From IMG/VR virus record IMGVR_UViG_3300008262_000099: a DNA stretch of 64,000 nucleotides; one strand, written 5' to 3'. The position numbers and the translations under genes are program-made. The notes under the pieces are model-generated. The model saw nothing but the letters and a program-made list of their open reading frames with translations, made no database searches and was not told the DNA's origin. Below, piece after piece: positions 3,381 through 53,199 of the stretch. How positions within the stretch are numbered: position 1 is the stretch's first letter; each line of letters starts with the position of its first letter. This DNA is from an uncultured virus (IMG/VR IMGVR_UViG_3300008262_000099) (Duplodnaviria; Heunggongvirae; Uroviricota; Caudoviricetes).

Positions 3381-3923
3381 ATGCCAGCCTCATTTCCCAC
3401 GTCGGTAAGAAGCTTTACTACAAAAGTAGATCTTCAAGATACCATTCTTGCTGATCACATTAACTCGCTACAAGATGAAGTACGTGCCATTGAAATTGCT
3501 CTTAATGGAACAGTTGATGCTACTAATGGTTTATTAACTTCAAACTATACAGGAACGTTTGCCTCTACATCTTCTTGGAATTCTTTGGATGAGCGCATAT
3601 CAAATATTGAACGTGGCTTGGTAAATGGCGTTCCTACTTCCCCATATTTGCTTAAGGCTGGGGATAACATGACTGTAGCTAACGTTGTTGCGTTAACTTT
3701 AAAAAATAGCTCAGCCACGGTAACAAGCAACTTATTTGAAGCATATAACTCTACCAATACTCTTGGGTTTAATCTAAACGGAAATGCTCAACCTAAGGTT
3801 GGAACAGCAAATGTTTTATACGTGGGTAGCTCTGAATACAACACGTTAAACACTACCGCTAACGAAGCATATGCAACAGCCCAAGCAGTTAGGTTTGACC
3901 CTTTCCTTCTAGCCGGAATGTAA
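3381..3923 (+). CDS. Tail/baseplate structural protein
   Basis: ADHINSLQDEVRAIE motif; follows gpJ; SD AAGGA. Confidence 0.5.
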   Translation: MPASFPTSVRSFTTKVDLQDTILADHINSLQDEVRAIEIALNGTVDATNGLLTSNYTGTFASTSSWNSLDERISNIERGLVNGVPTSPYLLKAGDNMTVANVVALTLKNSSATVTSNLFEAYNSTNTLGFNLNGNAQPKVGTANVLYVGSSEYNTLNTTANEAYATAQAVRFDPFLLAGM

Positions 3924-41631: not shown

Positions 41632-42282
41632 TTATCTTAACTTACTAGCCATTGCTTCTAGCCTTGCTTTCATAGCATGGTGTTGAATTTTGGCCGCTTC
41701 TACATAACTTCCCACCTCCTCATAATTTTCTTCATCTGGAAACCACGTGAACACGTCCTCCTCACTTGGAGGATCTACATAGTTCATTTGGCCACTTGGA
41801 GATGAGAAGTTTCCCTCCTTAACTGCTCGCCCTTTGGTATACATGACGTATCCGGCAAAATCTGAACCGGGTTCATCATAGGCGACGTAAATGTTTGTGT
41901 TGGGCCACCTTGCAGCCAACACTTCATACACCGGCAAGGGTGGAGCCCACGCAGATTCAAACTGAATACGAACAGTTCTATTCTGATTTAATAACGGATT
42001 GTTCTTGCCGTTATCGTAGACAATATTTGCATCTACATTCCATTTAGTCCCCCAATTGAGATTAGACCAGTCATACCAGTCTTTAGCTCCGTAGAGTTTC
42101 ATGTTAGTAGATGCGGCATCTTCATCACGTTCAGGCGCTGACTGACCACGCAATGCATTTGGCATTGCTATGACCTTATCAAGACTGAATGCGGTCCCGC
42201 TATCCTCTACTGAATCTAGAAGTTGTTGGACCTCTCCAGGCTCGCCCTGAATGATGACAGTATTACTGCACCAATTAGGCAT
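41632..42282 (-). CDS. DUF1281/YubB ferredoxin-like protein
   Basis: MPNWCSN, WYDW...NWGTKW, FESAWAPP, YDEPG. Confidence 0.8.
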   Translation of the reverse strand: MPNWCSNTVIIQGEPGEVQQLLDSVEDSGTAFSLDKVIAMPNALRGQSAPERDEDAASTNMKLYGAKDWYDWSNLNWGTKWNVDANIVYDNGKNNPLLNQNRTVRIQFESAWAPPLPVYEVLAARWPNTNIYVAYDEPGSDFAGYVMYTKGRAVKEGNFSSPSGQMNYVDPPSEEDVFTWFPDEENYEEVGSYVEAAKIQHHAMKARLEAMASKLR

Positions 42283-42316
42283 CAATCTCCTCTTTCTTTT
42301 CTTCTTGATATTGGTT

Positions 42317-42775
42317 TCATTTACCTTTTCCCTTCTTTTGTGTTATTGCCAGAGTTCCATCTGGCTTGGGCCATTTATACGGCAGGTTATCTCGCACTCG
42401 AAACCGATACCAAATCGGATCTTTACGTTTGAGATTAGATCGGTGAGATTTATGGAACTCATTGTTGTTCCACCACCACGGTGGCTCCCACCCTTCTAGG
42501 TCAAACTTTGCATATATATCTTGAAGCTGACCTTGAACATTATCGACGAAGCCCCGTTGTCTCCATTCCATGCACATAGCATTTGTGTATAGATATAGAT
42601 AACCTTCGTGACCTCGCCACATAACCGCAGCCGGATGATTTCTCCAGCCTTTAGTTAGTCCTAAGTTTGCTCTGAGTATCTGCAGTGCTTCAACTCGTTG
42701 CTTACCTAATCGTTTGTTGTCTAGAGCCTTAGCTGATCTTTCCATGTCAGGCCAAGGTAAGAATGTGTTTACCAA
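42317..42775 (-). CDS. Pyrimidine-dimer DNA glycosylase-like (MSMEG_6728/DenV-related)
   Basis: TFLP...LD.KRLGKQRVEA.QI, NHPA..MWRG, SHRSNL.RKD. Confidence 0.85.
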   Translation of the reverse strand: MVNTFLPWPDMERSAKALDNKRLGKQRVEALQILRANLGLTKGWRNHPAAVMWRGHEGYLYLYTNAMCMEWRQRGFVDNVQGQLQDIYAKFDLEGWEPPWWWNNNEFHKSHRSNLKRKDPIWYRFRVRDNLPYKWPKPDGTLAITQKKGKGK

Positions 42776-42939
42776 TCGATACTCACCTCATCCTTATGCT
42801 GGACAGATACTCCTGTTGGAGTTCTAAACACAATGTAATCAGGATGTAAAGTTTCAATCTTTTTCTTTACACCTACGAAGTCTAAACTCTTATCATTAAT
42901 AATAGCTTGGACTTCTTCCATATTTGCAAGGTTAATCAT
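42769..42939 (-). CDS. Hypothetical 56-aa protein (not in ORF track)
   Basis: SD GGAGG; MINLANMEEVQ...EVSIDW. Confidence 0.55.
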   Translation of the reverse strand: MINLANMEEVQAIINDKSLDFVGVKKKIETLHPDYIVFRTPTGVSVQHKDEVSIDW

Positions 42940-43093
42940 TATTCACCTCCAACCCTAACATTGGTAGTAGGTCTTCTTGTTTATGTTTGATGAAGAGTTT
43001 AACAACTGTTTTTTTATCCTCTTCATAACGTGCATCCTCCTGTTCTTTGAACCGGTATGCTGTCATGTATAGTTCCTGCTTTGGTATAGCCAT
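42932..43093 (-). CDS. Hypothetical 53-aa protein (not in ORF track)
   Basis: SD AGGAGG; MAIPKQELY...LEVNND. Confidence 0.55.
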   Translation of the reverse strand: MAIPKQELYMTAYRFKEQEDARYEEDKKTVVKLFIKHKQEDLLPMLGLEVNND

Positions 43094-43317
43094 TAGTTAG
43101 CCTCCTGGGTAGAAAATAGCGAACCGTCATAGGCGTTGTCAAGAGCCCAGTCTTGTGGGTCTGACACAGGTTCGATGGTTAGTTCGGAAACATTGCCATC
43201 AATCAGTATGTCTGATGCATGTAGCACGAACATTTGGGCATCATCGTGTGAATTGAAGGGACCGATTATGGTCTCTGTCACAGCATCCCAAACTACGCAC
43301 ATAGTTTCTGCGCACAT
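43093..43317 (-). CDS. Hypothetical protein
   Basis: SD GAAAGGAG; IGPF motif. Confidence 0.55.
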   Translation of the reverse strand: MCAETMCVVWDAVTETIIGPFNSHDDAQMFVLHASDILIDGNVSELTIEPVSDPQDWALDNAYDGSLFSTQEAN

Positions 43318-43329
43318 AGTTACTCCTTT

Positions 43330-45294
43330 CTACCGTCTACGAGAACGCTTTTTGATAGCACCAACTACCACCGCTTTGGCAAACGATAGTAACTCGCCAG
43401 CATGAGAGATACGACCAAAGATTTCTGTTCTGTGGGCTACCTTCTTCATATCCTTGTTGCTGTAGTGATTATCAAATGATTTAGCGTCCATGATTAGGAC
43501 AAGCGAAGTAAGAATACCTCGCTTAGAGATGCGTTCAATCAAATCATCATTAGGGTCGTGGTTAAACTCACCGTCAGTAATTATGAACAGCATCTTATTC
43601 TTCTTGCGTGAGGACATGAGTAATTGTTCTGCCTCAAGCAATGCGGTATAGGGATTAGTTCCGCCGTCACCGTATATAAACTTATACTGGAGACGATCGG
43701 CTTTCTCCGCTCTGTTGTAGGCAACTTCGTTTTGATCATCAAAGGCATACACAGTAACTGGTGCGCCTATGTGTTCTAACGCTCGCTTAATAGTCCAACA
43801 CGCTATAGATGCCTTTCTATCATTGCTTTGGAATGACATAGAGCCTGACCTGTCAACACAGATAACAGCCTCGATGTCACATCCATCATCGCCTTCATCC
43901 CATCTATCAAACGCTACGTCGGGTTCACACCCAGCCATAACTCGTTTGAAGTTTAATTTGCCAGAGGGAGTTTCTCTAATCCATGATGGTTCGGATTCAT
44001 CACGCAAGCGTTGTAGTTCTTTCGCAAACTTGCGATAACTTACTATTGCTTCTGCAGGAATCTGAGTCCTATCAAACTTGCCTCGTTTACTTTGATCTTC
44101 ATACCTACCATCGCCACCAACAATTACTTTTTGTTTGGCTTTGATGTCAGATATAACATCTTTGTTGTTCAAAGTATCAAAGACAATATCATCTAGCATG
44201 TTTCCAATGTGATTAGGAACACCACCTACGCTGGGAGTATGACCAACACCAATGTCTGGTGGTGTATCTAGATTACTCTCGCGTATATCTAGTGCTTCAT
44301 CTTGAGTGCGGTGGTTTGTAATGTTTTTTCCACCACCACTACCTCCATCATCGTCTTGTGGTTTATCTTGCTTACCACTAGGCTTTTGATTACCGGCTCC
44401 TTTTACTTTTGGTTTGTAGGTGTAAGGAGATTCTCCTACGCCTTGACCTTTAGCTCGAGCAGCATCACGTTCCTGTGCTTTGCCAGGTTCTGGTCTTCCT
44501 TTAGCCATGGGAGCACGACCCCCACAGCCTGTAGGACCACCGAGAGTGCATCCACCATCTTCTGGATTGTAGTTGTATGCACTAACTTGTGCTCTAATTT
44601 GGTCCAGTATTCCTGTTGGTTGTAGAACATAGTCATTGAATTGTTGAATCAATTCTTTGGCTCGTTCATAATCTCGAGGAAATACTAACAGCCGATACTC
44701 ATCAATGATTCTAGCCAATGTAGGTATTAGTTCTGGAAAAGCAAACTCATCTCGATATGCTTCTCGAACTTCTACCGGCAAGTATCTGCGACCACGTATC
44801 GCCAAATAGGTTCCAGAGACATCTGATTCATCTTCTGAAAGCCAGCGAGCACAGGTAGATGATAGGTATGGAATAACAGATGGGTAGCGAGCAGTAAATA
44901 GGGTCTCGATTCGTTGATCCTCGAGAATATTCATGCTCTCCATAAGTTGATTTTCTATAACCCATTTCACCATTTCTGTGCCTTTGCGAGGCGTATACAG
45001 TTGATGACAAAGCTCATGGTAGTTGAGGCCGGTAACTTGTGTCAATGTTTCCAAGTCCATGTCTTGAATCTCGGAAGCATTAAATGTGATTGTTGCACCG
45101 TCAGACCAGGCTGGAGCCGGGCCTTGATTTACAACATTCACAACAATCGGATCGCCAGTTAGAACACGATCTGCTTGTTCATACACACGACATAGAGTTC
45201 CTAGTTGTAGTGCACGTTCCTGCAAATCTTCATCCCTAGCCTCCTTGATATACCAAGAGTTTTCTTCATCTCTCAGTCCATCAATCAATGGCAT
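43330..45294 (-). CDS. VWA-domain protein with N-terminal HExxH (CobT-like partner)
   Basis: YHELCH...NILEDQRIE; MIDAS DRSGSM, GGT, ITDG. Confidence 0.85.
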   Translation of the reverse strand: MPLIDGLRDEENSWYIKEARDEDLQERALQLGTLCRVYEQADRVLTGDPIVVNVVNQGPAPAWSDGATITFNASEIQDMDLETLTQVTGLNYHELCHQLYTPRKGTEMVKWVIENQLMESMNILEDQRIETLFTARYPSVIPYLSSTCARWLSEDESDVSGTYLAIRGRRYLPVEVREAYRDEFAFPELIPTLARIIDEYRLLVFPRDYERAKELIQQFNDYVLQPTGILDQIRAQVSAYNYNPEDGGCTLGGPTGCGGRAPMAKGRPEPGKAQERDAARAKGQGVGESPYTYKPKVKGAGNQKPSGKQDKPQDDDGGSGGGKNITNHRTQDEALDIRESNLDTPPDIGVGHTPSVGGVPNHIGNMLDDIVFDTLNNKDVISDIKAKQKVIVGGDGRYEDQSKRGKFDRTQIPAEAIVSYRKFAKELQRLRDESEPSWIRETPSGKLNFKRVMAGCEPDVAFDRWDEGDDGCDIEAVICVDRSGSMSFQSNDRKASIACWTIKRALEHIGAPVTVYAFDDQNEVAYNRAEKADRLQYKFIYGDGGTNPYTALLEAEQLLMSSRKKNKMLFIITDGEFNHDPNDDLIERISKRGILTSLVLIMDAKSFDNHYSNKDMKKVAHRTEIFGRISHAGELLSFAKAVVVGAIKKRSRRR

Positions 45295-45305
45295 GTTTAT
45301 CCTTT

Positions 45306-46712
45306 CTAAACAGAAGTTGGGACAAAACCATTAACCCACTGTTCAAGTTCTTGTTCAGGAGTTAACGATTCTTCAGGCTGTGTAACAGTGACAGGCACTT
45401 CTATACCGAAGTCAGTCTTAATGTTGTGTTCGTGAGTTTGGAAGATAAGGCGAACTGACGCTGCTTCTTCTGGGGAAAAGTGAGCGATGAAGTTTTCAAC
45501 TGCAAACTCATAACTCAAGTCACCCACGAACTGAACGAACTCAATCAACATATTGGTTGAGATTGGGGTTTCGTATTGACCTTTAGCAGCTTCAACGCGA
45601 AGTTGCTTAGCAAGATTCAACAGAGACTTGGAACTAACCAATTTAGACTCGACCTTGTCATCGTAATCCCAAGGAATTTGGATATCAAAGCGATTACGAA
45701 ACGCGAAGTTGAGCGGTGTAGTGCCGATATAATCTGGATTCATTGTTGCAAAGATAGTCAAGTCTTTATGAGCCTTGATTACTTCACCCATGTGATCTAG
45801 TAGTGATATCGAACGCTGTCCTGCCAACAATGTGTATAGAGTTGTGTAGATTTTAGGGTTGATGAAGTTGACCTCGTCGAGGAGCAACACACCACCGTTG
45901 CGAATAACATCGGTGACTGGACCATCAATCCAAACCCACTTGCCATCAATCTGAGTCATTTTGCCAAACATTTGGCTTGGCTCCAATGATGCATTGCCAG
46001 ATACCAACGCAAGTCTGAGCATACGTTCAGCAGCCCAAGCTTCGACAGATGTTGTCTTGCCGGGACCTGTTGGACCGTATAGAAGCACGTTGATGTTGTT
46101 AGAACGGGCATAGTCGTAGATAGCAAAGTCTTCTTTGCCAAATACCTGCCTATGCACATACTTTTTAGCCAACTCCATTGGTGGCACGACTGCTAGCGCA
46201 ACATACGCTGGTGTCGGTGTTACCACAGGTGTTGATTCGATTGGCGTGGCGATTGTTTGTGTTGGCACAGCCCCCATTGCCACCGGAACTACAGAGCCAG
46301 CTTGACGACGATTATCGAGAACATAGTCATCGAGTGAATCATCGCGCTCGCTTACTTGTGAGTAAATATCCGGAAGGATATTACTCAAAGTATCTGTAGA
46401 TAGTGTTGCTTTGGTATGAGCCTGACACGCTTTAGTGCCCAAGACAGGGGAATAACCCTTGTCAGTCATAGCACGCTCATCAGCAGGCGTAACATATACG
46501 CCGACTGGAGTTCGTGTAAGTTGCTCGGCTGTGCCGATCTGTCCCACGAGTGTGTCGTATTCAGTTTCCTCCCATTTATTGTGAGGACCCTTAGTCCCAT
46601 CAGTGACCCGTGTATAGATTCGTACGAGCTCGCCATGTGGCGTAACAAGAACTTGACGGCGTTTCGTTCCCATTATTGGCTCGTAGGATTCTGTGAATAT
46701 AGCGATATCCAT
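45306..46712 (-). CDS. MoxR/CbbQ/CobS-type AAA+ ATPase
   Basis: GPTGPGKT, W.DGP, LLLDEVN, ATMNP.Y.GT..LN.A..NRF. Confidence 0.9.
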   Translation of the reverse strand: MDIAIFTESYEPIMGTKRRQVLVTPHGELVRIYTRVTDGTKGPHNKWEETEYDTLVGQIGTAEQLTRTPVGVYVTPADERAMTDKGYSPVLGTKACQAHTKATLSTDTLSNILPDIYSQVSERDDSLDDYVLDNRRQAGSVVPVAMGAVPTQTIATPIESTPVVTPTPAYVALAVVPPMELAKKYVHRQVFGKEDFAIYDYARSNNINVLLYGPTGPGKTTSVEAWAAERMLRLALVSGNASLEPSQMFGKMTQIDGKWVWIDGPVTDVIRNGGVLLLDEVNFINPKIYTTLYTLLAGQRSISLLDHMGEVIKAHKDLTIFATMNPDYIGTTPLNFAFRNRFDIQIPWDYDDKVESKLVSSKSLLNLAKQLRVEAAKGQYETPISTNMLIEFVQFVGDLSYEFAVENFIAHFSPEEAASVRLIFQTHEHNIKTDFGIEVPVTVTQPEESLTPEQELEQWVNGFVPTSV

Positions 46713-46797
46713 TTCCTACCCCTTCTCGGTATGTGGATTCGTTGCTGTAAGCAATTTGCTTACAGTCTCCGGCACCGTGCCGGAAATCTATGTGCAA

Positions 46798-47260
46798 GAG
46801 AACAGAGGGCGTGGGGTATAAATACATGCCGATAGGCCTATCAACTTAGCTTCATCGGTGATGAAGAACCGTGCGCCTTCGCATTAACCTTCAATGCGGA
46901 AAGGACTGGCTGCGATAATTTTAGTCGGATTTCCCCATGTATCAGGGAACCCACGCTCGCCTCTGTCTCCTGTGTAAGGTGGGTGCATATGCTAACCACC
47001 TGTTGTTTTGTATGAGTTACGCACGAAGGAGGGGGAGACTTGAGCGCTACTTAGCATCACAACCTCTGCGACTTTTGGACAAGACAACTGCATGTTCGTT
47101 AGCACACTCTCCTTTAGGGAGTCATTTGGATAGTTCCACGTGGTGTATCGAAACAAGGTCTTGGGTTCACCTCTGGTCCGTTCATCTATAGATTAGGTTG
47201 ATTTTAGCTGTTGGGGCAAGGGTCTCAGTAACCTCGAGTGCTTCTCGTCATACATAACCC
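46798..47260. ncRNA. Candidate structured non-coding RNA
   Basis: No credible ORF; long-range stem 46798-46815 / 46950-46969 enclosing several hairpins. Confidence 0.5.
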
Positions 47261-47263
47261 TAT

Positions 47264-47560
47264 TTAGAATGGGTCGGGGAATTCTTCCGCAAGAACTGAT
47301 CGTCTCAGTTCAAGGGGCAACTCTTCTGGGTGACGAAGGGCTATCGTTATACCCATCATGTTGGCAATGTGGAACGTAACGCAGATAACACAGGCGGGAA
47401 TCATTTCCTTGTGCTCTCTATCGCCGTAATTATCTCGTAAATGAGACATTACTATTCTGGCTGTGTCCACCAATGAACTGCAGTCATCGTGTTCACAATT
47501 TCCTTCATCTTTATTGTTATTGATGAAGTCGTCCATGTTGTACTTATCAAAGTATGACAT
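47264..47560 (-). CDS. Hypothetical Cys-containing protein
   Basis: SD GAAAGG. Confidence 0.5.
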   Translation of the reverse strand: MSYFDKYNMDDFINNNKDEGNCEHDDCSSLVDTARIVMSHLRDNYGDREHKEMIPACVICVTFHIANMMGITIALRHPEELPLELRRSVLAEEFPDPF

Positions 47561-47572
47561 GGTTCTACCTTT

Positions 47573-48136
47573 CTACTTTAGAAATAGACTGAGTTGTCCA
47601 TTTTCTTTTGCTGCATTCAGCGTGTGCATTGCTACCAATTTGTTGTTTAAAACTAATTGTTGATAGATAACTCCAGGCATGCCTTTCTTTATCGCATCAA
47701 CAATAGTCCAAATGGTTGCGCCTACTTCCGCTGGTTTAGAGCGTTTGATTACTTTTACTGCAAAGTCTTTGCGTTCCAAAGCAAAAGCAATTGACGCTGC
47801 ATACTCTGTAAGAGTTTTGAGCGTGCTGCTTCCATCTGGTGTGCTTCTTAACCATGCGGCAAAAGTGTAAAACAAATCATCAATAGCGGTATCGTTGCCA
47901 TTATTTACTGACTCCAATACTTCTGTAATGATTTCTGCTGTTACTGCTTCACGAAATGACTTGCTTGCTTCAGACAATGCTACAAAACCTTTAGGCATAG
48001 TATTGCTGTAGACAATGATGTTAGTGCATTCCGTTACAAGTTCTTGAGCTGATGATGTTTCTGGATTGTTCAAAGGTAATTCATAGATTTGAACTCCAGA
48101 AGTTATCGGATCAAACTCAACTGATGTTTGGGACAT
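47573..48136 (-). CDS. Hypothetical protein
   Basis: 187 aa ORF. Confidence 0.5.
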   Translation of the reverse strand: MSQTSVEFDPITSGVQIYELPLNNPETSSAQELVTECTNIIVYSNTMPKGFVALSEASKSFREAVTAEIITEVLESVNNGNDTAIDDLFYTFAAWLRSTPDGSSTLKTLTEYAASIAFALERKDFAVKVIKRSKPAEVGATIWTIVDAIKKGMPGVIYQQLVLNNKLVAMHTLNAAKENGQLSLFLK

Positions 48137-48830
48137 ATGCTGCTATCGCTTTCTCTAGTTCGCTTGGTTTGTTATTAACAAGAGTGCCGTGTTGTAATCG
48201 CAAAGGTGTTCCGTCCCATAGCATAGTTACTAACTGACTGCCATAGTCTTTCTTACCATAACCGTTACAACCAAAGCACTTCTCTGTTTTTGTTGTGTAA
48301 TGGTTTGTACTTAAACCATGAACACACTTGTGTCTGTGCCATCCGCCATTCAGTTTTGAAATTGTAGCGGGCATGAGAGTTGTTTTATCGCACTCTTCAG
48401 AGCCCAGCGAATGACAATACGGAATAGTGCAATAGCCATCGACAAGTCCAGCGCCATGACAGCGCCTGCACTTTTGTATCTTTGGTGGTTTTCTTGTTGC
48501 ATCAGCTAACACAATGTGAAACTTATTGTTTCTTTGATACAAACTAGTAATTCCTGAATACATTCGAATTACTTCTCGAACACTCCAAGAATAGAGGGGG
48601 TTGTAATACCCACCCCACCTTGTTCGTCCAAGTCCAGCCTGTATTGTTATTGTGTCATCTGGATGGAATACGACAACTGCTTGATTAGTCCAAGGATAAA
48701 AGACTTCGATGTCTTTTGGATTTGCTTGGGTTTTGCGAAGCCGTAGTCCACGAGTGTAAAGTGGGCGTTCCCACTTTTTGCGACCGCCTGCTAACCAGTC
48801 GACCGCTTCTTGATAGGTATTGATAATCAT
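48117..48830 (-). CDS. Protein with DnaJ-type CxxCxGxG zinc motifs
   Basis: CRRCHGAG and CFGCNGYG. Confidence 0.6.
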   Translation of the reverse strand: MIINTYQEAVDWLAGGRKKWERPLYTRGLRLRKTQANPKDIEVFYPWTNQAVVVFHPDDTITIQAGLGRTRWGGYYNPLYSWSVREVIRMYSGITSLYQRNNKFHIVLADATRKPPKIQKCRRCHGAGLVDGYCTIPYCHSLGSEECDKTTLMPATISKLNGGWHRHKCVHGLSTNHYTTKTEKCFGCNGYGKKDYGSQLVTMLWDGTPLRLQHGTLVNNKPSELEKAIAAYVPNIS

Positions 48831-49123
48831 TAGATTACCTCTTTCTCACGATTGAGATACTCGAACGTGCGTTCCCTCTCTGCTTCTCGAATGCGGGCAA
48901 GTTCTTTTTTGGATACTTGCTCGTCTTCTTCGAACCAATGAATAGAAATGGGGAACCTTCTTGCTCTATTTGGTGATAGAGCATAGAGAATGTCTCCCAT
49001 TCCGTCAATGACTCCAGAGTGGTAGGCACGACTGTGCATGTCGTCTAAGTCCTGAGCATCTATCTCAGAACGAAGCATCATGTCTTCAATCAGTTTGAGA
49101 ACTTTCTTCTTTCTCAGTATCAT
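48830..49123 (-). CDS. Hypothetical protein
   Basis: SD GAAAGG. Confidence 0.55.
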   Translation of the reverse strand: MILRKKKVLKLIEDMMLRSEIDAQDLDDMHSRAYHSGVIDGMGDILYALSPNRARRFPISIHWFEEDEQVSKKELARIREAERERTFEYLNREKEVI

Positions 49124-49139
49124 GTGTGCCTTTCTGCCA

Positions 49140-49740
49140 CGTGCTACCCACTATGGATAACACGAGCGTGCCAATGTAAACTTTGACATCTACATTGGCG
49201 GACTAGATTAGACTGCTAGCCCAGTTATTGGGTATGGACAATCGTGAACACGCAGTGTTCGTGCTGCCATCCAACTTGAACTTGGAAACACATTGAATTA
49301 CTGAAGGTATTATCGTGAGACTCACAACGTGGCCTCTGTTGCGTTGTAGAATTACATACATAGTCTCGGTCGCGTCTCTTACTATGCATCTACGCTCATT
49401 ATGGGAGGACTAACGTGACCCACTGGGTGCCTCTGACCCCATAGTTCGTACCCTTATGCTTCTTCGCCCCCTTTGTATTCAGACATAGTCTCCCGAATAC
49501 ATACTCAGCTCTCGGTGATAATCAACAGCCTATTCAATGTGTCTCCAAGAATCTATAAGCAGTTTTTAGTGAGTCATGCTCAGGACTCAGGCATTCGCCC
49601 CATGCAATAACATCTATTACTGTCTGTAATAGGAATGTAACGCACTTATTGGTAGCCGGGCAATTCCCATTCCCGTTTACCCCTTATTTATAGTCGTTGG
49701 TTACGACTCCCTTCCTTTCGATGCATGCATCTACTAGGCG
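49140..49740. ncRNA. Candidate large structured non-coding RNA
   Basis: About 600 nt without a listed ORF; 18-bp long-range stem and many local hairpins. Confidence 0.55.
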
Positions 49741-49743
49741 GAA

Positions 49744-50109
49744 TTACTGTCTGTTGAAAGCAACAGAAAACTGCGTAAAGAATGCAGCGATTTTGAATCC
49801 AATTTGATGCAATGGATACAAATGGTCAGACTCTTCGTTACCTTTTGTATTCCATGAACGAGCATCAAATGGAGTTGATAAATCCAAATCTAACTTGAAT
49901 AAACTGTCTGTAAATCCAAGCATGATTTCAAAACCATAATCATATTTAGCCTTGGTTGTAAAGTGAAACGCAAAACCTCGGCCGTTGTATGGGTCATAAA
50001 GACGATAAAACTTGAACCCAGGAATAGCATTATCTTTCATGTTTTGTTCAACATCATCAAAGAAACTATCCACATCGGGATAATCCATGATTGTTCTACC
50101 TTCGTGCAT
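49744..50109 (-). CDS. Hypothetical protein
   Basis: SD GAAAGG; preceded by pseudoknot motif. Confidence 0.55.
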   Translation of the reverse strand: MHEGRTIMDYPDVDSFFDDVEQNMKDNAIPGFKFYRLYDPYNGRGFAFHFTTKAKYDYGFEIMLGFTDSLFKLDLDLSTPFDARSWNTKGNEESDHLYPLHQIGFKIAAFFTQFSVAFNRQ

Positions 50110-50254
50110 TTGTGTCCTTTCTTTTGTAGTTGATAAGCAGTTTATCCCTTCACATGCTTAGGTGACGAGTCGCGTTATTACCTCAGGTAACCGACTAAAA
50201 AGACCAACCACACATCTACCTCTCATGGATAGCCTATTCGTGTGTGCGGAAGAT

Positions 50255-51001
50255 TTACATACCTTTTACTGATTCAAGTTGCTTCTTGAGTTCGTCTTGC
50301 TGTGCCTCTAACGCAGCAATTTTCTTCTTCTTGATTTCTTCTTTGGCTGTTGCCAAGAATGAGGCTAATTCTGCTGCCTCATCAAGAGTCAATGAAATAG
50401 TGCGGAACCCGACCGTTACTTCGACTTCCATACTATGCTCATTTATTTCATATTTGAGGTTTTTATCGTCGCATTCACGTTTGCAATAGCAATACGATGG
50501 GCGACATCCTTTTGGACACATTTCTTCTGTCACCTTCCTTTCTTTTACTAGTCCATGGGCTTTCATCATGCTGTCTCTATGCCACGCAGCAAAGTGCTTG
50601 TCATACGTAGACGCTCCTTCTTCAATAAAAAAACGTGCTTCTATTCTACTTATTTCGTAGAAGCAATCGTTTTCTTCATCTCTCGCAAAACGAGAAGTCC
50701 AAGAAAAGTTGTAACTCTTTTCTCTTACGTAATCTAAAGGAACAATACGATAAAGCAACAAGGTGTCTGATCTATGACGTTTGCCGCAACCAATAGTTTT
50801 AATACACCAATTAACATCTTCATCCTTCAACGTTCCGGGATACTCTAGAAGATAGTTTCGGTATTTATACCATTCGCTTGTTGCAGAAACTTTATGGTAT
50901 TCACTAATTGATCTACGAGACCAACCATACGAACGACCATTCAAGAACTCACGTTCTACCTCTGCTAACGTAGGAAGTTTGTTTTCATTTTCAACTTCCA
51001 T
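50255..51001 (-). CDS. Hypothetical protein with C-terminal coiled coil
   Basis: ATG at 51001 after GAAAGG. Confidence 0.55.
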   Translation of the reverse strand: MEVENENKLPTLAEVEREFLNGRSYGWSRRSISEYHKVSATSEWYKYRNYLLEYPGTLKDEDVNWCIKTIGCGKRHRSDTLLLYRIVPLDYVREKSYNFSWTSRFARDEENDCFYEISRIEARFFIEEGASTYDKHFAAWHRDSMMKAHGLVKERKVTEEMCPKGCRPSYCYCKRECDDKNLKYEINEHSMEVEVTVGFRTISLTLDEAAELASFLATAKEEIKKKKIAALEAQQDELKKQLESVKGM

Positions 51002-51078
51002 GTTTGCCTTTCTTCTGCCTGTGTTATGAAACACAGACAGACAGAGCAACACAGGAAAGCCTGTGATGCCCTGTCCAA

Positions 51079-51285
51079 CTATCTTCCACTTGACCTACCC
51101 CCTGTGTAAACAAAAGGGTCTGTTTTATTTACTATTGTGTAGCCCTGTTTAGGAACTAGTATCAAACACATGCGTTCGGTTAGTTCTGATGGGCGATTAT
51201 TGAAGCATTGTTTCTTCATGCAATAGGTGTAGCCAAGGTCCCATCTTTCTGGGGCAACTGGCTCACCACATGAGTCACAGAGCAT
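51079..51285 (-). CDS. DksA/TraR-like C4 zinc-finger small protein
   Basis: CDSCGEPV..ER...G...C...C. Confidence 0.5.
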   Translation of the reverse strand: MLCDSCGEPVAPERWDLGYTYCMKKQCFNNRPSELTERMCLILVPKQGYTIVNKTDPFVYTGGRSSGR

Positions 51286-51427
51286 GGTTCTCCCTTGATT
51301 TGCTTATTTGTTATTATTGATACAAGAAAGCGGTGTATCTCCGCTTCTAACTTAGAATGTATAAAAGCCAGCTGCTGAAGGCTAATCTCACCTTCAACAG
51401 AGGCTTTTATTTCTAGTTGTGTTTTCA

Positions 51428-51694
51428 TTACCAAGTCCTCCCAGCAAATCTTTCTGCTGCTTCAACTTGGTTGTCGAAATAATCTCCTGTTGAACAAGAG
51501 CCTGTAATTTCGTTGTATGTCCATACAACATAGGGGTGATGTGTAGACATAGGTGCATAGCACAAGACGATAGTGTTCATTGGATCGTTTTGAACAGGCT
51601 TGAATAACAAGACTGTCGCTCCTTCAGATACACCTTTACCTTGTAAAATGGTTCCGCATCTAATAACAGATACGACAGGATTTGAATCCTCCAT
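51428..51694 (-). CDS. Hypothetical protein
   Basis: HPYVVW...GDYF; SD GAAAGGAG. Confidence 0.55.
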   Translation of the reverse strand: MEDSNPVVSVIRCGTILQGKGVSEGATVLLFKPVQNDPMNTIVLCYAPMSTHHPYVVWTYNEITGSCSTGDYFDNQVEAAERFAGRTW

Positions 51695-51740
51695 TGTGTT
51701 CTCCTTTCTGTTAGTTCTTCATCTTATGGGGAAAGTCGGG

Positions 51741-51803
51741 GAAAAACAAAAAAAAATAAGCCCCTTCAACTTATAGTCGAGCAACTATAAATTGAAGGGG
51801 CTC
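51741..51803 (-). terminator. Strong intrinsic terminator
   Basis: AGCCCCTTCAA.TTATAGT / ACTATAA.TTGAAGGGGCT stem followed on the minus strand by a long T-tract. Confidence 0.85.
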
Positions 51804-51852
51804 TTCCCCATTGCGCAGCAAAAACTTCGCGGGGACCTTGTTGGTCATTACA

Positions 51853-51987
51853 TTAGTCAGTTAGGTCATAAAGACCTGGTTCAACTCTCTCAATACGCTC
51901 TCGGTTATAACGACGAAGGCGAATAAGATTGAGGATTGTAAGATAGGCGATACATACAGCACCGCCAAATAAAACAAACTCAAGCAT
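51853..51987 (-). CDS. 44-aa single-TM peptide (not in ORF track)
   Basis: SD AGGAG; MLEFVLFGGAVCIAYLTILNLIRLRR... Confidence 0.55.
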   Translation of the reverse strand: MLEFVLFGGAVCIAYLTILNLIRLRRYNRERIERVEPGLYDLTD

Positions 51988-52189
51988 TGACTACTCCTGT
52001 CTTCCAATGGGGAATGTGATTACTATCTGCTCTACCGCCAATGGCTTTCCAAGCCTCACGCTTAGCATGAGCCTCAGGGCTACGCCCATTTACATGGGTG
52101 AAGTTAGTCTTTGGGGGTTGGGCTGGTCCAGGGTTCTTCTTGAACGCTTTACCATTCTTGCGTTGGCTATTAGTCGTGCCTTTTGGCAT
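51980..52189 (-). CDS. Small basic protein
   Basis: ATG 52189 after AAGGAGG; MPKGTTNSQRK... Confidence 0.6.
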   Translation of the reverse strand: MPKGTTNSQRKNGKAFKKNPGPAQPPKTNFTHVNGRSPEAHAKREAWKAIGGRADSNHIPHWKTGVVNA

Positions 52190-52692
52190 AACGACCTCCT
52201 TTCTTATAGCCAAGAGCATACACAGGAATAGGCGTTGATCCAACAAGGGTAGAAAGGTGTAAACCCAAGTGTTATAGCCGACAGGAAAGGGGGTTCTTCC
52301 TATGTATGCTCTAAGCCATAAGGTATAGAGATACACGCCCCAACCGACAAATGAAAGGGGTCGGCGGGGGCGTGTTCTCTACTTAGACAGAAGACACAAG
52401 ATAAGGTTTAGGTAGCCTACATACGAAGGGAGAAAAGCAGACCGACAAGGCTACTCTTACCAATAAAGGCAATTCGCATTGTTTAGGTCACTCCCTATCT
52501 ATACCCATAGTTATCCGCCGACTATTGGAGTAGGCGAACTATCTGCTAATAGCGAAAGCGGTAATCTCTAGACCTGCTCTTACTCTCAATGATGAGAGTT
52601 CGCTAGAAGCAGTAGCCAAATGCTAACTATGAGCATAGATAGGGGCAGGGAGAGCCTAGACTCCCCCTGCCATGTGATTTACATCACGATTA

Positions 52693-53199
52693 TTACGCTA
52701 CTGCTAACTCTTTCGCCATGAATGACTCTTGTAGTGCCGTCAATCTATCCAACGCTTCGGCATACGCTTGCTTTTGCGTGGTAGTTGGCGAAATGAGGTT
52801 TTCCTCGATTTCTTTGATTACTTCGGACAAGTTCTCCAAACGGGAGGTAAGTGCTGACCCGTCGGCTTCCTTTTGCTTCTGCTTCAATAACTTAGAAGCG
52901 AGGTCTTCCTTACGGAAAGCGTCGAGTTGAGCAAGGATAGTAGTTGGGTCACTAACATCAATGCGCTCGAAATAACGACCGATAAGCGTAATGTTGGTCT
53001 TTAGGAACTCAGCACTAACGCCTAATGAGTTGTAATAACCCGCCCACGCACGACCACGCTGGGAAGCGTTTGGCTTCTCAGGGAGAAGGTAGTTGGGGTG
53101 GGTAACGAGTTCGCTTGTAAAGGCGGAGGCTACATTCTCAATAACGAGAGTAGTAGAGCCAGCAACCATGTCACGAAGTAGTTCTATTTGAGATTTCAT
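52693..53199 (-). CDS. Hypothetical protein, first gene of the minus-strand block
   Basis: SD GAAAGGA. Confidence 0.6.
   Translation of the reverse strand: MKSQIELLRDMVAGSTTLVIENVASAFTSELVTHPNYLLPEKPNASQRGRAWAGYYNSLGVSAEFLKTNITLIGRYFERIDVSDPTTILAQLDAFRKEDLASKLLKQKQKEADGSALTSRLENLSEVIKEIEENLISPTTTQKQAYAEALDRLTALQESFMAKELAVA

Follow-up and report, generated by a model that had tools for sequence, protein, structure and literature searches.

Two structured RNA modules of different evolutionary depth in the gap upstream of a MoxR/CobS-like AAA gene in an uncultured tailed phage

We analysed a stretch of 64,000 nucleotides (nt) from an uncultured freshwater virus of the Caudoviricetes (IMG/VR record IMGVR_UViG_3300008262_000099; this whole stretch is referred to as the window), which contains a long non-coding gap at positions 46713-47263 between two genes on the minus strand. 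Upstream in the direction of transcription lies p98, an open reading frame (ORF) of 98 amino acids (aa) on the minus strand (47264..47560) whose stop codon adjoins the structured region described here. Downstream lies the minus-strand gene for a 468-aa MoxR/CobS-like AAA+ ATPase (45306..46712; Pfam AAA_5, 2.3e-19; phrog_249, 6.4e-47), which has midasin, NorQ and CbbQ as PDB matches and is followed by the gene for a 654-aa VWA-domain protein (43330-45294, minus strand; Pfam VWA_2, 4.4e-06). Across 41632-53199, every ORF of at least 90 aa that does not lie within a longer one is encoded on the minus strand. The phage genome is about 104 kb, and record G001, which is rated 100% complete, contains the 551-nt gap once at 100% identity. 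An earlier model-made annotation that used the letters only (the sequence-only reading) had proposed a single multi-stem non-coding RNA at 46798..47260, possibly antisense to the minus-strand operon. Our analysis indicates that the structured RNA is real and previously uncatalogued, is in no Rfam family and can be grouped with the orphan structured RNAs of phages. The gap does not form a single RNA fold: it comprises two modules that differ in evolutionary depth, after which comes the leader of the next gene.

Relatives of the locus were collected using the AAA protein as a query, which identified 27 loci from viral contigs. The gap in loci L002 and L003 is identical to that of the window. The AAA protein of L004 and L005 is 80% identical to that of the window, and their gap shows about 76% identity over window positions 46713-46968. 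A metagenome scan with the p98 protein returned three loci, one of which is the window's own contig and only one of which (L232) was new; its gap is roughly 93% identical (alignment A9, estimated by eye). p98 is confined to this window clade, is 65% identical in L004 and gave no Pfam or PHROG match. All other relatives have a very acidic ORF of about 80 aa directly upstream of the AAA gene, preceded by a non-coding stretch of 230-420 nt. A blastn search with 46600-47400 against 50,697 annotated phage records gave no match.

The module closest to the AAA gene (46798..46969; the minus strand is preferred, with the strand not settled) consists of a closing helix, an inner helix and branch hairpins. 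The closing helix (GAG.ACAGAGG.GCGTGGG / CCCACGC...CCTCTGT.CTC; 46798-46816 with 46950-46969) is G+C-rich and 14-17 base pairs (bp) long, and the inner helix (ATACATG/CATGTAT) joins 46822-46828 to 46936-46942. The branch hairpins are GATAGGCCTATC (46831-46842), CTTCATC-GGT-GATGAAG (46850-46866), CGCATT-n7-AATGCG (46880-46898) and GACTGG/TTAGTC (46904-46909 with 46921-46926). All stems listed by the sequence-only reading were found in the DNA where it had placed them; one of them, GTTGTTTTGT (47002-47011) with ACAAGACAAC (47079-47088), occurs in no consensus structure that we obtained.

The region 46790-46975 folds better than shuffled sequence, with a z score of -3.77 on the minus strand (1 of 200 shuffles as good) and -3.14 on the plus strand (0 of 200). 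For the whole gap, compared to dinucleotide shuffles, the z scores were -2.56 on the plus strand (0 of 100 as good) and -2.64 on the minus strand (1 of 100). RNAalifold analysis of the window and L004 predicted 41 pairs on the plus strand, 13 of which are doubly changed with pairing kept, and 44 pairs on the minus strand, with 14 such changes. When the plus-strand structure was kept fixed and compared with the 76%-identical L004 sequence, 82 of 82 cells paired (100%) and 13 of the 41 pairs were compensatory. In the control, in which the 3' partner was slid by 1-3 columns, only 0-1 pairs covaried and 33-47% of the cells paired, and none of 500 shuffles reached the observed value. The outer helix is sequence-invariant between the window and L004 (6 of 6 pairs in helix 1 and 7 of 8 pairs in helix 2 never vary), and the double changes are located in the inner helices and the branch hairpins. 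Folding that beats shuffled sequence, covariation and presence in RNA libraries (see below) were thus all found, and none of the observations that the sequence-only reading had named as evidence against an RNA was made.

A model of the module (R1), built from the window and L004 sequences, was searched against 183 sources (22 + 80 + 81). R1 matches only the window clade, which comprises three distinct sequences (window/L002/L003, L004/L005 and L232). The module is present as a single copy in the 104-kb genome and in no other contig among the 80 + 81 pattern-selected viral loci. A 14-base word of the module occurs in at least 119 loci, mostly by chance, and among the 80 fetched only the two known contigs match R1; the pattern of the closing stem occurs in 93 loci, and among the 80 fetched only known contigs match R1. 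Two loci with two motifs in common with the window (L029 and L049) were rejected as chance matches in coding sequence. The module is thus genuine, its pairing is maintained by selection, and its occurrence is limited to three distinct sequences.

The position of the module is where the sister phages carry the acidic ORF. Stop-free frames differ among the window, L232 and L004, and none is common to all three, which argues against a protein-coding module. When the upstream ORFs of 16 relatives were compared with the gap by tblastn, none of the 15 real acidic ORFs matched; the single match (34% over 91 aa) came from a spurious frame of L004 itself and reflects the 76% DNA identity. A profile of the acidic ORF found nothing in the window's genome. 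The possibility that p98 is a diverged acidic ORF was rejected (hhalign probability 0.2%). Members of the acidic family (L012 3680-3925 and homologs; alignment A10) share a conserved LFDLITKWP block, many have an N-terminal CxxC, and they are always located just upstream of the AAA gene; the member tested has no PHROG match.

Comparison of the gaps of all relatives on the gene strand identified a non-coding core that is common to the sister phages and consists of a four-way junction of about 200 nt plus a hairpin. The fold of the sister phages starts with a closing helix (P1), followed by a small hairpin, a long arm and a second hairpin, and then by a separate 15-bp hairpin. The consensus of eight sister phages has 55 pairs, 28 of which show a compensatory change. 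A covariance model (R2) was built from these eight phages and searched against 92 sources, resulting in 13 hits. The loci of 11 relatives were found at E<=1e-64 and L011 at 1.7e-11. The match in the window (46967-47253, minus strand) is weak, with 18.8 bits and an E value of 8e-5 to 2e-4. It relies mostly on the two ends, which are P1 and the flanking AGAAGCAC, CCUUCGUGCGUAA and AGAAGCACUCG blocks, and its interior is a 141-nt unaligned insert.

The region 47009..47254 (minus strand) is a diverged copy of the family-wide core RNA, closed by P1 and with a lineage-specific interior. P1 pairs 47248-47254 with 47009-47015 (TGTATGA/TCATACA) and GCAC at 47238-47241 with GUGC at 47021-47024. The TGTATGA/TCATACA pairing, which the sequence-only reading had picked out, covaries family-wide, and within the window clade P1 covaries as well, with a G-C to A-U and an A-U to G-C change in L004. 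In the core family as a whole (12 distinct rows) 91.2% of 612 cells pair, and double changes are present in 38 of the 55 pairs, including 9 of the 10 pairs of family helices 1-2. None of 500 shuffles reached the observed value, and slid alignments left 33-42% of the cells paired and at most 11 pairs. The unpaired nucleotides of the junction are strongly conserved throughout the family, for example in the ACCCAAGCCGGAA and GCCCGUAGU-GCUAAG blocks. R2 found the core as a single copy in 5 of 5 complete genomes of about 100 kb. A sequence pattern of the core occurs in 83 viral loci, 11 of which are known relatives; a second pattern occurs in 19 viral and 106 bacterial-genome stretches, and none of the 89 that were searched (80 bacterial, 9 viral) matched R2. 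The neighbourhood of the core is the same in all loci, between a block of 150-190-aa ORFs and the AAA/VWA pair, with the extra p98 upstream in the window. Domains are added around the core by lineage: L006 has a domain on the 5' side, L008/L017 and L014/L015 carry inserts on that side, and the window has the multi-stem module on the 3' side.

Between the two modules lies the hairpin AGGTGG/CCACCT (46977..47001, minus strand; 46977-46982 with 46996-47001), at the position of the terminator-like hairpin P8 of the sister phages. In L232 two of its pairs have changed from G-C to A-U in a compensatory manner, and in L004 the entire hairpin is deleted. In the 15-bp hairpin of the sister phages (helix 9), 14 of 15 pairs covary. 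Beside P1, at 47025-47037 on the minus strand, a C/U-rich run resembles the 16S anti-Shine-Dalgarno (anti-SD) sequence. The anti-SD-like C/U-rich strand before P1 is the best complement of the Shine-Dalgarno (SD) sequence in 6 of 10 related sequences, and in the other 4 the best complement lies elsewhere.

The third part of the gap is the leader of the AAA gene. Its SD region (GAGAAGGGG; 46713..46743, minus strand) is identical at 31 of 31 bases in L006/L007, even though the AAA protein of these loci is only 74% identical to that of the window. Two short perfect hairpins are visible in the minus strand at 46745-46765 and 46768-46784. Such hairpins occur in all sister phages with differing sequence, and in L004 and in L008/L012 one of their pairs is U-G on the gene strand and C-A on the other strand. 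Adjacent to them is the motif ATAGATTTCC (46782..46791, minus strand), which is identical in the window, L004 and L006 and has a related form, TAAGTTTCC, after the acidic ORF at the equivalent place in the sister phages. The motif is a candidate TANNNT-type -10 element or processing site; by the usual consensus rules, it would presumably be a TANNNT -10 element about 7 nt before the ends of the contigs on the AAA side, or an RNase E-type site. It is not over-represented in the window (4 matches of the degenerate form versus 2.95 expected).

Six metatranscriptome runs contain 82-97% of the sampled words of 46300-47700. In three of four runs, contigs stop at 46772-46775 and resume at 46793 (run X17), 46802 (X18) or 46819 (X16). 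The ATAGATTTCC motif lies between these two RNA populations, within the stretch that the RNA contigs leave uncovered, and the uncovered positions 46776-46792 in three RNA runs are only a hint of separate transcript ends, as the fourth run bridges them. The X17 contig 46793-47608 has a depth of 32.6 compared to 11 and 6.4 for its neighbours, contig depth being a poor measure. In the same run, adapter letters of the read-1 type adjoin 46793 and continue into plus-strand sequence. First mates are complementary to the RNA in most stranded libraries, and the adapter at 46793 fits the 3' end of a minus-strand RNA if the library was stranded in the usual way. At 47541, inside the p98 ORF, all four RNA runs have A where the window has T; the p98 of L002/L003 also differs by one residue from the window version, and this is a strain variant.

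The 64-kb window was searched with Rfam 15 (4227 models, among them riboswitches, ribozymes, 6S, RNase P and group I/II introns), and no match reached the gathering score. At E<=10 the only match in 46500-47500 was MEG8_1, a mammalian long non-coding RNA model, with 13 bits against a gathering score of 70, which is a chance match. Only two tRNAs, located elsewhere, were found in the loci of ten relatives, and a search of four core-bearing loci at E<=5 gave one 17.8-bit chance hit to snoU13. ARAGORN found no tRNA or tmRNA genes in the window; the element is not a tRNA or tmRNA, and the comparison with Rfam that the sequence-only reading had proposed revealed no family. A cobalamin riboswitch upstream of the CobS-like gene was rejected, as Rfam gave no hit even at E<=10; the predicted architecture in the sister phages would be compatible with a riboswitch. 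In the literature listing and the opening lines of the abstracts, nothing was found on RNA upstream of phage cobS/cobT-like genes. A VWA protein of the Ro60 type, which would suggest a Y-RNA partner, was also considered and dropped (no Pfam TROVE hit, no PDB match).

Covariation does not decide the strand of the RNA. The excess folding energy over dinucleotide shuffles is larger on the gene strand in the gaps of 9 of 9 relatives. The strongest signal in the family is that of the whole gap of L006 (3497-4000), with a z score of -9.5 on the gene strand versus -6.4 on the other. The family consensus fold has an energy of -50.6 kcal/mol on the gene strand versus -44.5 kcal/mol on the other. In distant relatives the acidic ORF is preceded by a hairpin with a trailing U run on the gene strand; a terminator scan flagged L018, and in L019 and L022, which were not flagged, the hairpin and U run are visible in the folds. 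Because of the excess folding energy, the flanking hairpins and the gene context, we lean towards the minus strand, and the four readings that place the RNA on the gene strand are, taken jointly, very probable.

The folds are real, under selection, single-copy and outside Rfam, and they are present in RNA libraries with a recurrent break at 46772-46819. From the data above we infer, with a probability of roughly 0.45, that this is a structured RNA embedded in an mRNA, where it would create or stabilise a 3' end and act as a gate for expression downstream. The RNA would be on the minus strand, as part of an early-gene message that also carries p98. Module 1 (47254 to 47009) is the diverged four-way-junction core. 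In the sister phages the core and the 15-bp terminator-like hairpin are positioned immediately upstream of the acidic gene and the AAA/VWA pair, where they would precede the SD sequence of the acidic ORF and probably gate that ORF. Module 2 (46969 to 46798) is a lineage-specific multi-branched fold in the place of the gene for the acidic protein. The core and hairpin may act as a cis gate for the downstream sequence, either as an attenuator or as a leader that occludes the ribosome-binding site. The long G+C-rich closing helix of module 2, together with its U/C-rich tail, may generate or shield the 3' end of the RNA upstream, near 46793-46800. Some 20 nt beyond it, the AAA/VWA message would begin again at the conserved TAGATT motif, with the two hairpins at its 5' end.

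Several observations weigh against this model. R2 does not hit L004 at all, and the core is therefore decaying or changing in the window clade; the core of the window alone has a single-sequence z score of -0.14 on both strands. The idea that the C/U-rich strand acts as an anti-SD, suggested by base complementarity, is weak: the anti-SD/SD register shifts between relatives, and column covariation is not countable there. The RNA runs were compared as contigs, which carry no strand or level information and may include DNA carry-over, and in run X6 one contig bridges the break. Several measures of strand are neutral. The 39 pairs common to the family folds of both strands contain 10 G-U and 10 A-C cells, the excess energy of the window gap is -16.4 on the minus versus -16.7 on the plus strand with no asymmetry, and the consensus energy of the module is -51.9 on the minus versus -48.7 on the plus strand with similar G-U/A-C counts. 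Single-sequence z scores of the core alone are inconsistent, favouring the gene strand in 8 of 12 cases with 2 ties and 2 opposite. Finally, no terminator-like site was detected on either strand in 46400-47900, the tail of the module has too few U for the terminator rule, and promoter-like sites in the same interval number none on the plus strand and 2 on the minus strand, which is not significant against the 2.3 expected.

A different use of the same gene-strand RNA would be as a stand-alone, stable non-coding RNA that is cut or terminated from the early transcript and acts in trans, for example as a protein-binding or decoy RNA. Its core would be conserved for catalysis or binding, and its peripheral domains would be exchangeable. 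Strongly conserved unpaired nucleotides in the junction and add-on domains that vary by lineage agree with this possibility, since a conserved core with a variable periphery is the pattern of large functional RNAs. The element also persists in the window clade, where the gene that it precedes elsewhere is gone, and the discrete X17 contig 46793-47608 is deeper than its neighbours, with the reservation on contig depth given above. The same contig includes the whole p98 ORF, however, and so does not represent a small RNA. In L012 the upstream stop codon is only about 20 nt away from P1, which leaves no room for a promoter of its own in the gap, and the interior of the core has not been conserved between the window and L004. 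We consider an RNA acting in trans doubtful.

The sequence-only reading favoured the plus strand, with an RNA possibly antisense to the operon; such an RNA would start near 46793 and run into the complement of p98. This is unlikely. The element lies in a gene-free gap and overlaps no minus-strand coding sequence. The G-U pairs in GACTGG/TTAGTC and GTTGTTTTGT/ACAAGACAAC would indeed be A-C on the minus strand, and helices that are predicted only on the opposite strand in the family (16 pairs) have G-U in 40 of 128 cells. The claim that several wobble pairs work only on the plus strand proved one-sided, as the consensus of the three sequences has 14 G-U and 4 A-C on the minus strand versus 11 G-U and 6 A-C on the plus strand. 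The absolute energy of the window is lower on the plus strand (-184.1 vs -166.3 kcal/mol), but its shuffles match this difference, which therefore reflects composition; the excess energy is equal in the window, and the gene strand has the larger excess both in L006 and in 9 of 9 relatives. RNA contigs without strand that start at 46793-46819, one of them ending at 47608, would equally fit a diverging plus-strand RNA. Against this, 46400-47900 contains neither a promoter-like nor a terminator-like site on the plus strand, the type of adapter at 46793 agrees with the 3' end of a minus-strand RNA, provided that the library was stranded, and the U-tailed hairpins at the equivalent place in distant relatives are on the gene strand.

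Processive antitermination of the HK022 put or Bacillus EAR kind, in which the core would bind RNA polymerase in cis and cause read-through of the hairpin and of later terminators in the early operon, appears improbable. The core is always trailed within about 15 nt by a strong hairpin, with a U run in distant relatives, it has conserved junction nucleotides, and it lies inside a long co-directional early block with several large structured gaps, such as 49124-49743. No match to any Rfam family was obtained by sequence or model, though, and put RNA has only about a third of the length of the core. In addition, the hairpin tails are U-poor in the core-bearing phages, and the hairpin is weak in the window and deleted in L004.

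For the multi-stem module, an origin as a selfish or relict insertion (a palindrome like a miniature inverted-repeat transposable element (MITE) or a repetitive extragenic palindrome (REP), or a gene remnant), with the closing stem as terminal inverted repeats, is quite improbable. Its occurrence in one small clade only, at a site that is variable among relatives and where it replaces a gene, would suit such an insertion, as would the sequence-invariant long outer helix. The module is single-copy and absent from other contigs among the 80 + 81 pattern-selected viral loci, and it has no flanking direct repeat. Pairing in the inner helices has survived 12 double changes at 76% identity, an outcome that neutral decay would not give. 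A gene remnant is contradicted by the lack of protein-level similarity to the acidic ORF and of an ORF common to the three sequences.

In the highly improbable case that the module is a functional RNA replacement for the acidic protein of about 80 aa, a folded polyanionic RNA would have assumed the role of a protein that mimics nucleic acid, for instance as a decoy for a host factor or defence system. The adjoining core would then belong to a new RNA class, sensing or catalytic, with a controlling or scaffolding part in this function next to the MoxR-type AAA/VWA pair. A DNA-level element (replication origin, packaging or recombination site, or protein-binding array) would explain the many inverted repeats in a gene-free stretch and the about equal folding of both strands in the window, but it is extremely improbable, as the helices are kept via G-C to A-U swaps and G-U intermediates and not as conserved sequence, which points to selection on RNA pairing, while no repeated binding-site words are present and the stretch occurs in RNA libraries.

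Other features were noted in the gaps of relatives and in the early block of the window. A C/A-rich word, CCAACACAAACAAAC, and variants of it are located directly after the stop codon of the upstream 150-190-aa ORF (within the first ~15 nt) in nine relatives (L008, L009, L012, L014, L015, L017, L018, L020 and L026), and are absent from the window. Rho-loading or enhancer sites are G-poor and unstructured, as is this type of word. L006 has an extra domain of about 135 nt with a long stem 5' of the core (3497-3640) and three hairpins before the AAA gene. A tRNA gene is present about 1-2.7 kb upstream of the AAA gene in L018 (2873-2946) and L023 (1239-1312), whereas the window is without any tRNA. 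In L026 and L028 a different conserved non-coding block (GGTTGGCTAAGC...), which R2 does not match, precedes the acidic ORF instead of the core, and the site before the acidic ORF may host more than one RNA family. In the window, 49124-49743 (minus strand) is another large gene-free gap of the early block, with a z score of -5.22 (0 of 20 shuffles as good). RNA contigs start there at 49281 (X6, with adapter letters) and at 49283 (X17, per-contig depth 146, the highest on the stretch compared), and this gap may contain a second structured, abundant RNA with a defined end. Further long gaps among the minus-strand ORFs of the block are 50110-50254 (145 nt), 51053-51979 (927 nt) and 52337-52692 (355 nt). 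No repeated words of note are common to the gap studied here and the other large gaps of the early region.

Structured RNAs that are supported by covariation and lie outside Rfam are uncommon, and few come from uncultured freshwater phages. The RNA described here combines a conserved junction core with lineage-specific plug-in domains, and one lineage has an RNA module where its relatives encode an acidic protein. If the core were a sensor, an antiterminator or a stable RNA acting in trans, it would represent a new class of regulatory RNA in phage early-gene control and would also open a way to study the MoxR/CobS-VWA modules, which are unexplained and present in many phages. If it were only a structure that forms or stabilises an mRNA end, it would be a tidy but ordinary part of phage gene expression.

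Compared with known systems, the module resembles MITE and REP palindromes in its long sequence-invariant outer inverted repeat and patchy distribution, and differs in being single-copy, without a flanking direct repeat and with inner helices kept by compensatory change. HK022 put and EAR are likewise cis-encoded folded RNAs just upstream of a terminator-like hairpin in a phage operon, but to judge from Rfam there is no relation in size, fold or sequence. GOLLD, ROOL and HEARO are large phage-associated orphan RNAs with Rfam models. Like these, the RNA is phage-borne and several hundred nt long with a conserved core and variable periphery; unlike these, it is smaller, it is not beside tRNA genes in the window, and neither the window nor the loci of ten relatives (except for the tRNAs elsewhere) matched Rfam 15. 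The RNase III processing hairpins of the T7 early genes are also structured elements between co-directional early genes of a lytic phage, and the RNA populations on either side of 46775-46793 appear separate. The T7 elements are single irregular hairpins of about 20 bp, whereas the folds described here are multi-branched, 170-250 nt long and have conserved junctions, and the break is located in an unpaired A/U-rich motif next to a hairpin and not within a long duplex. Leader RNAs with an expression platform differ in that the RNA described here has no Rfam match and U-poor hairpin tails, and in that the core of the window is without a following gene and its RNA appears to end before the next gene. 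They are similar in their layout: in the sister phages a multi-helix junction whose unpaired nucleotides are invariant comes first, then a strong hairpin, and then an SD sequence and gene start, always at the equivalent genomic position; an anti-SD-like C/U-rich strand lies beside P1.

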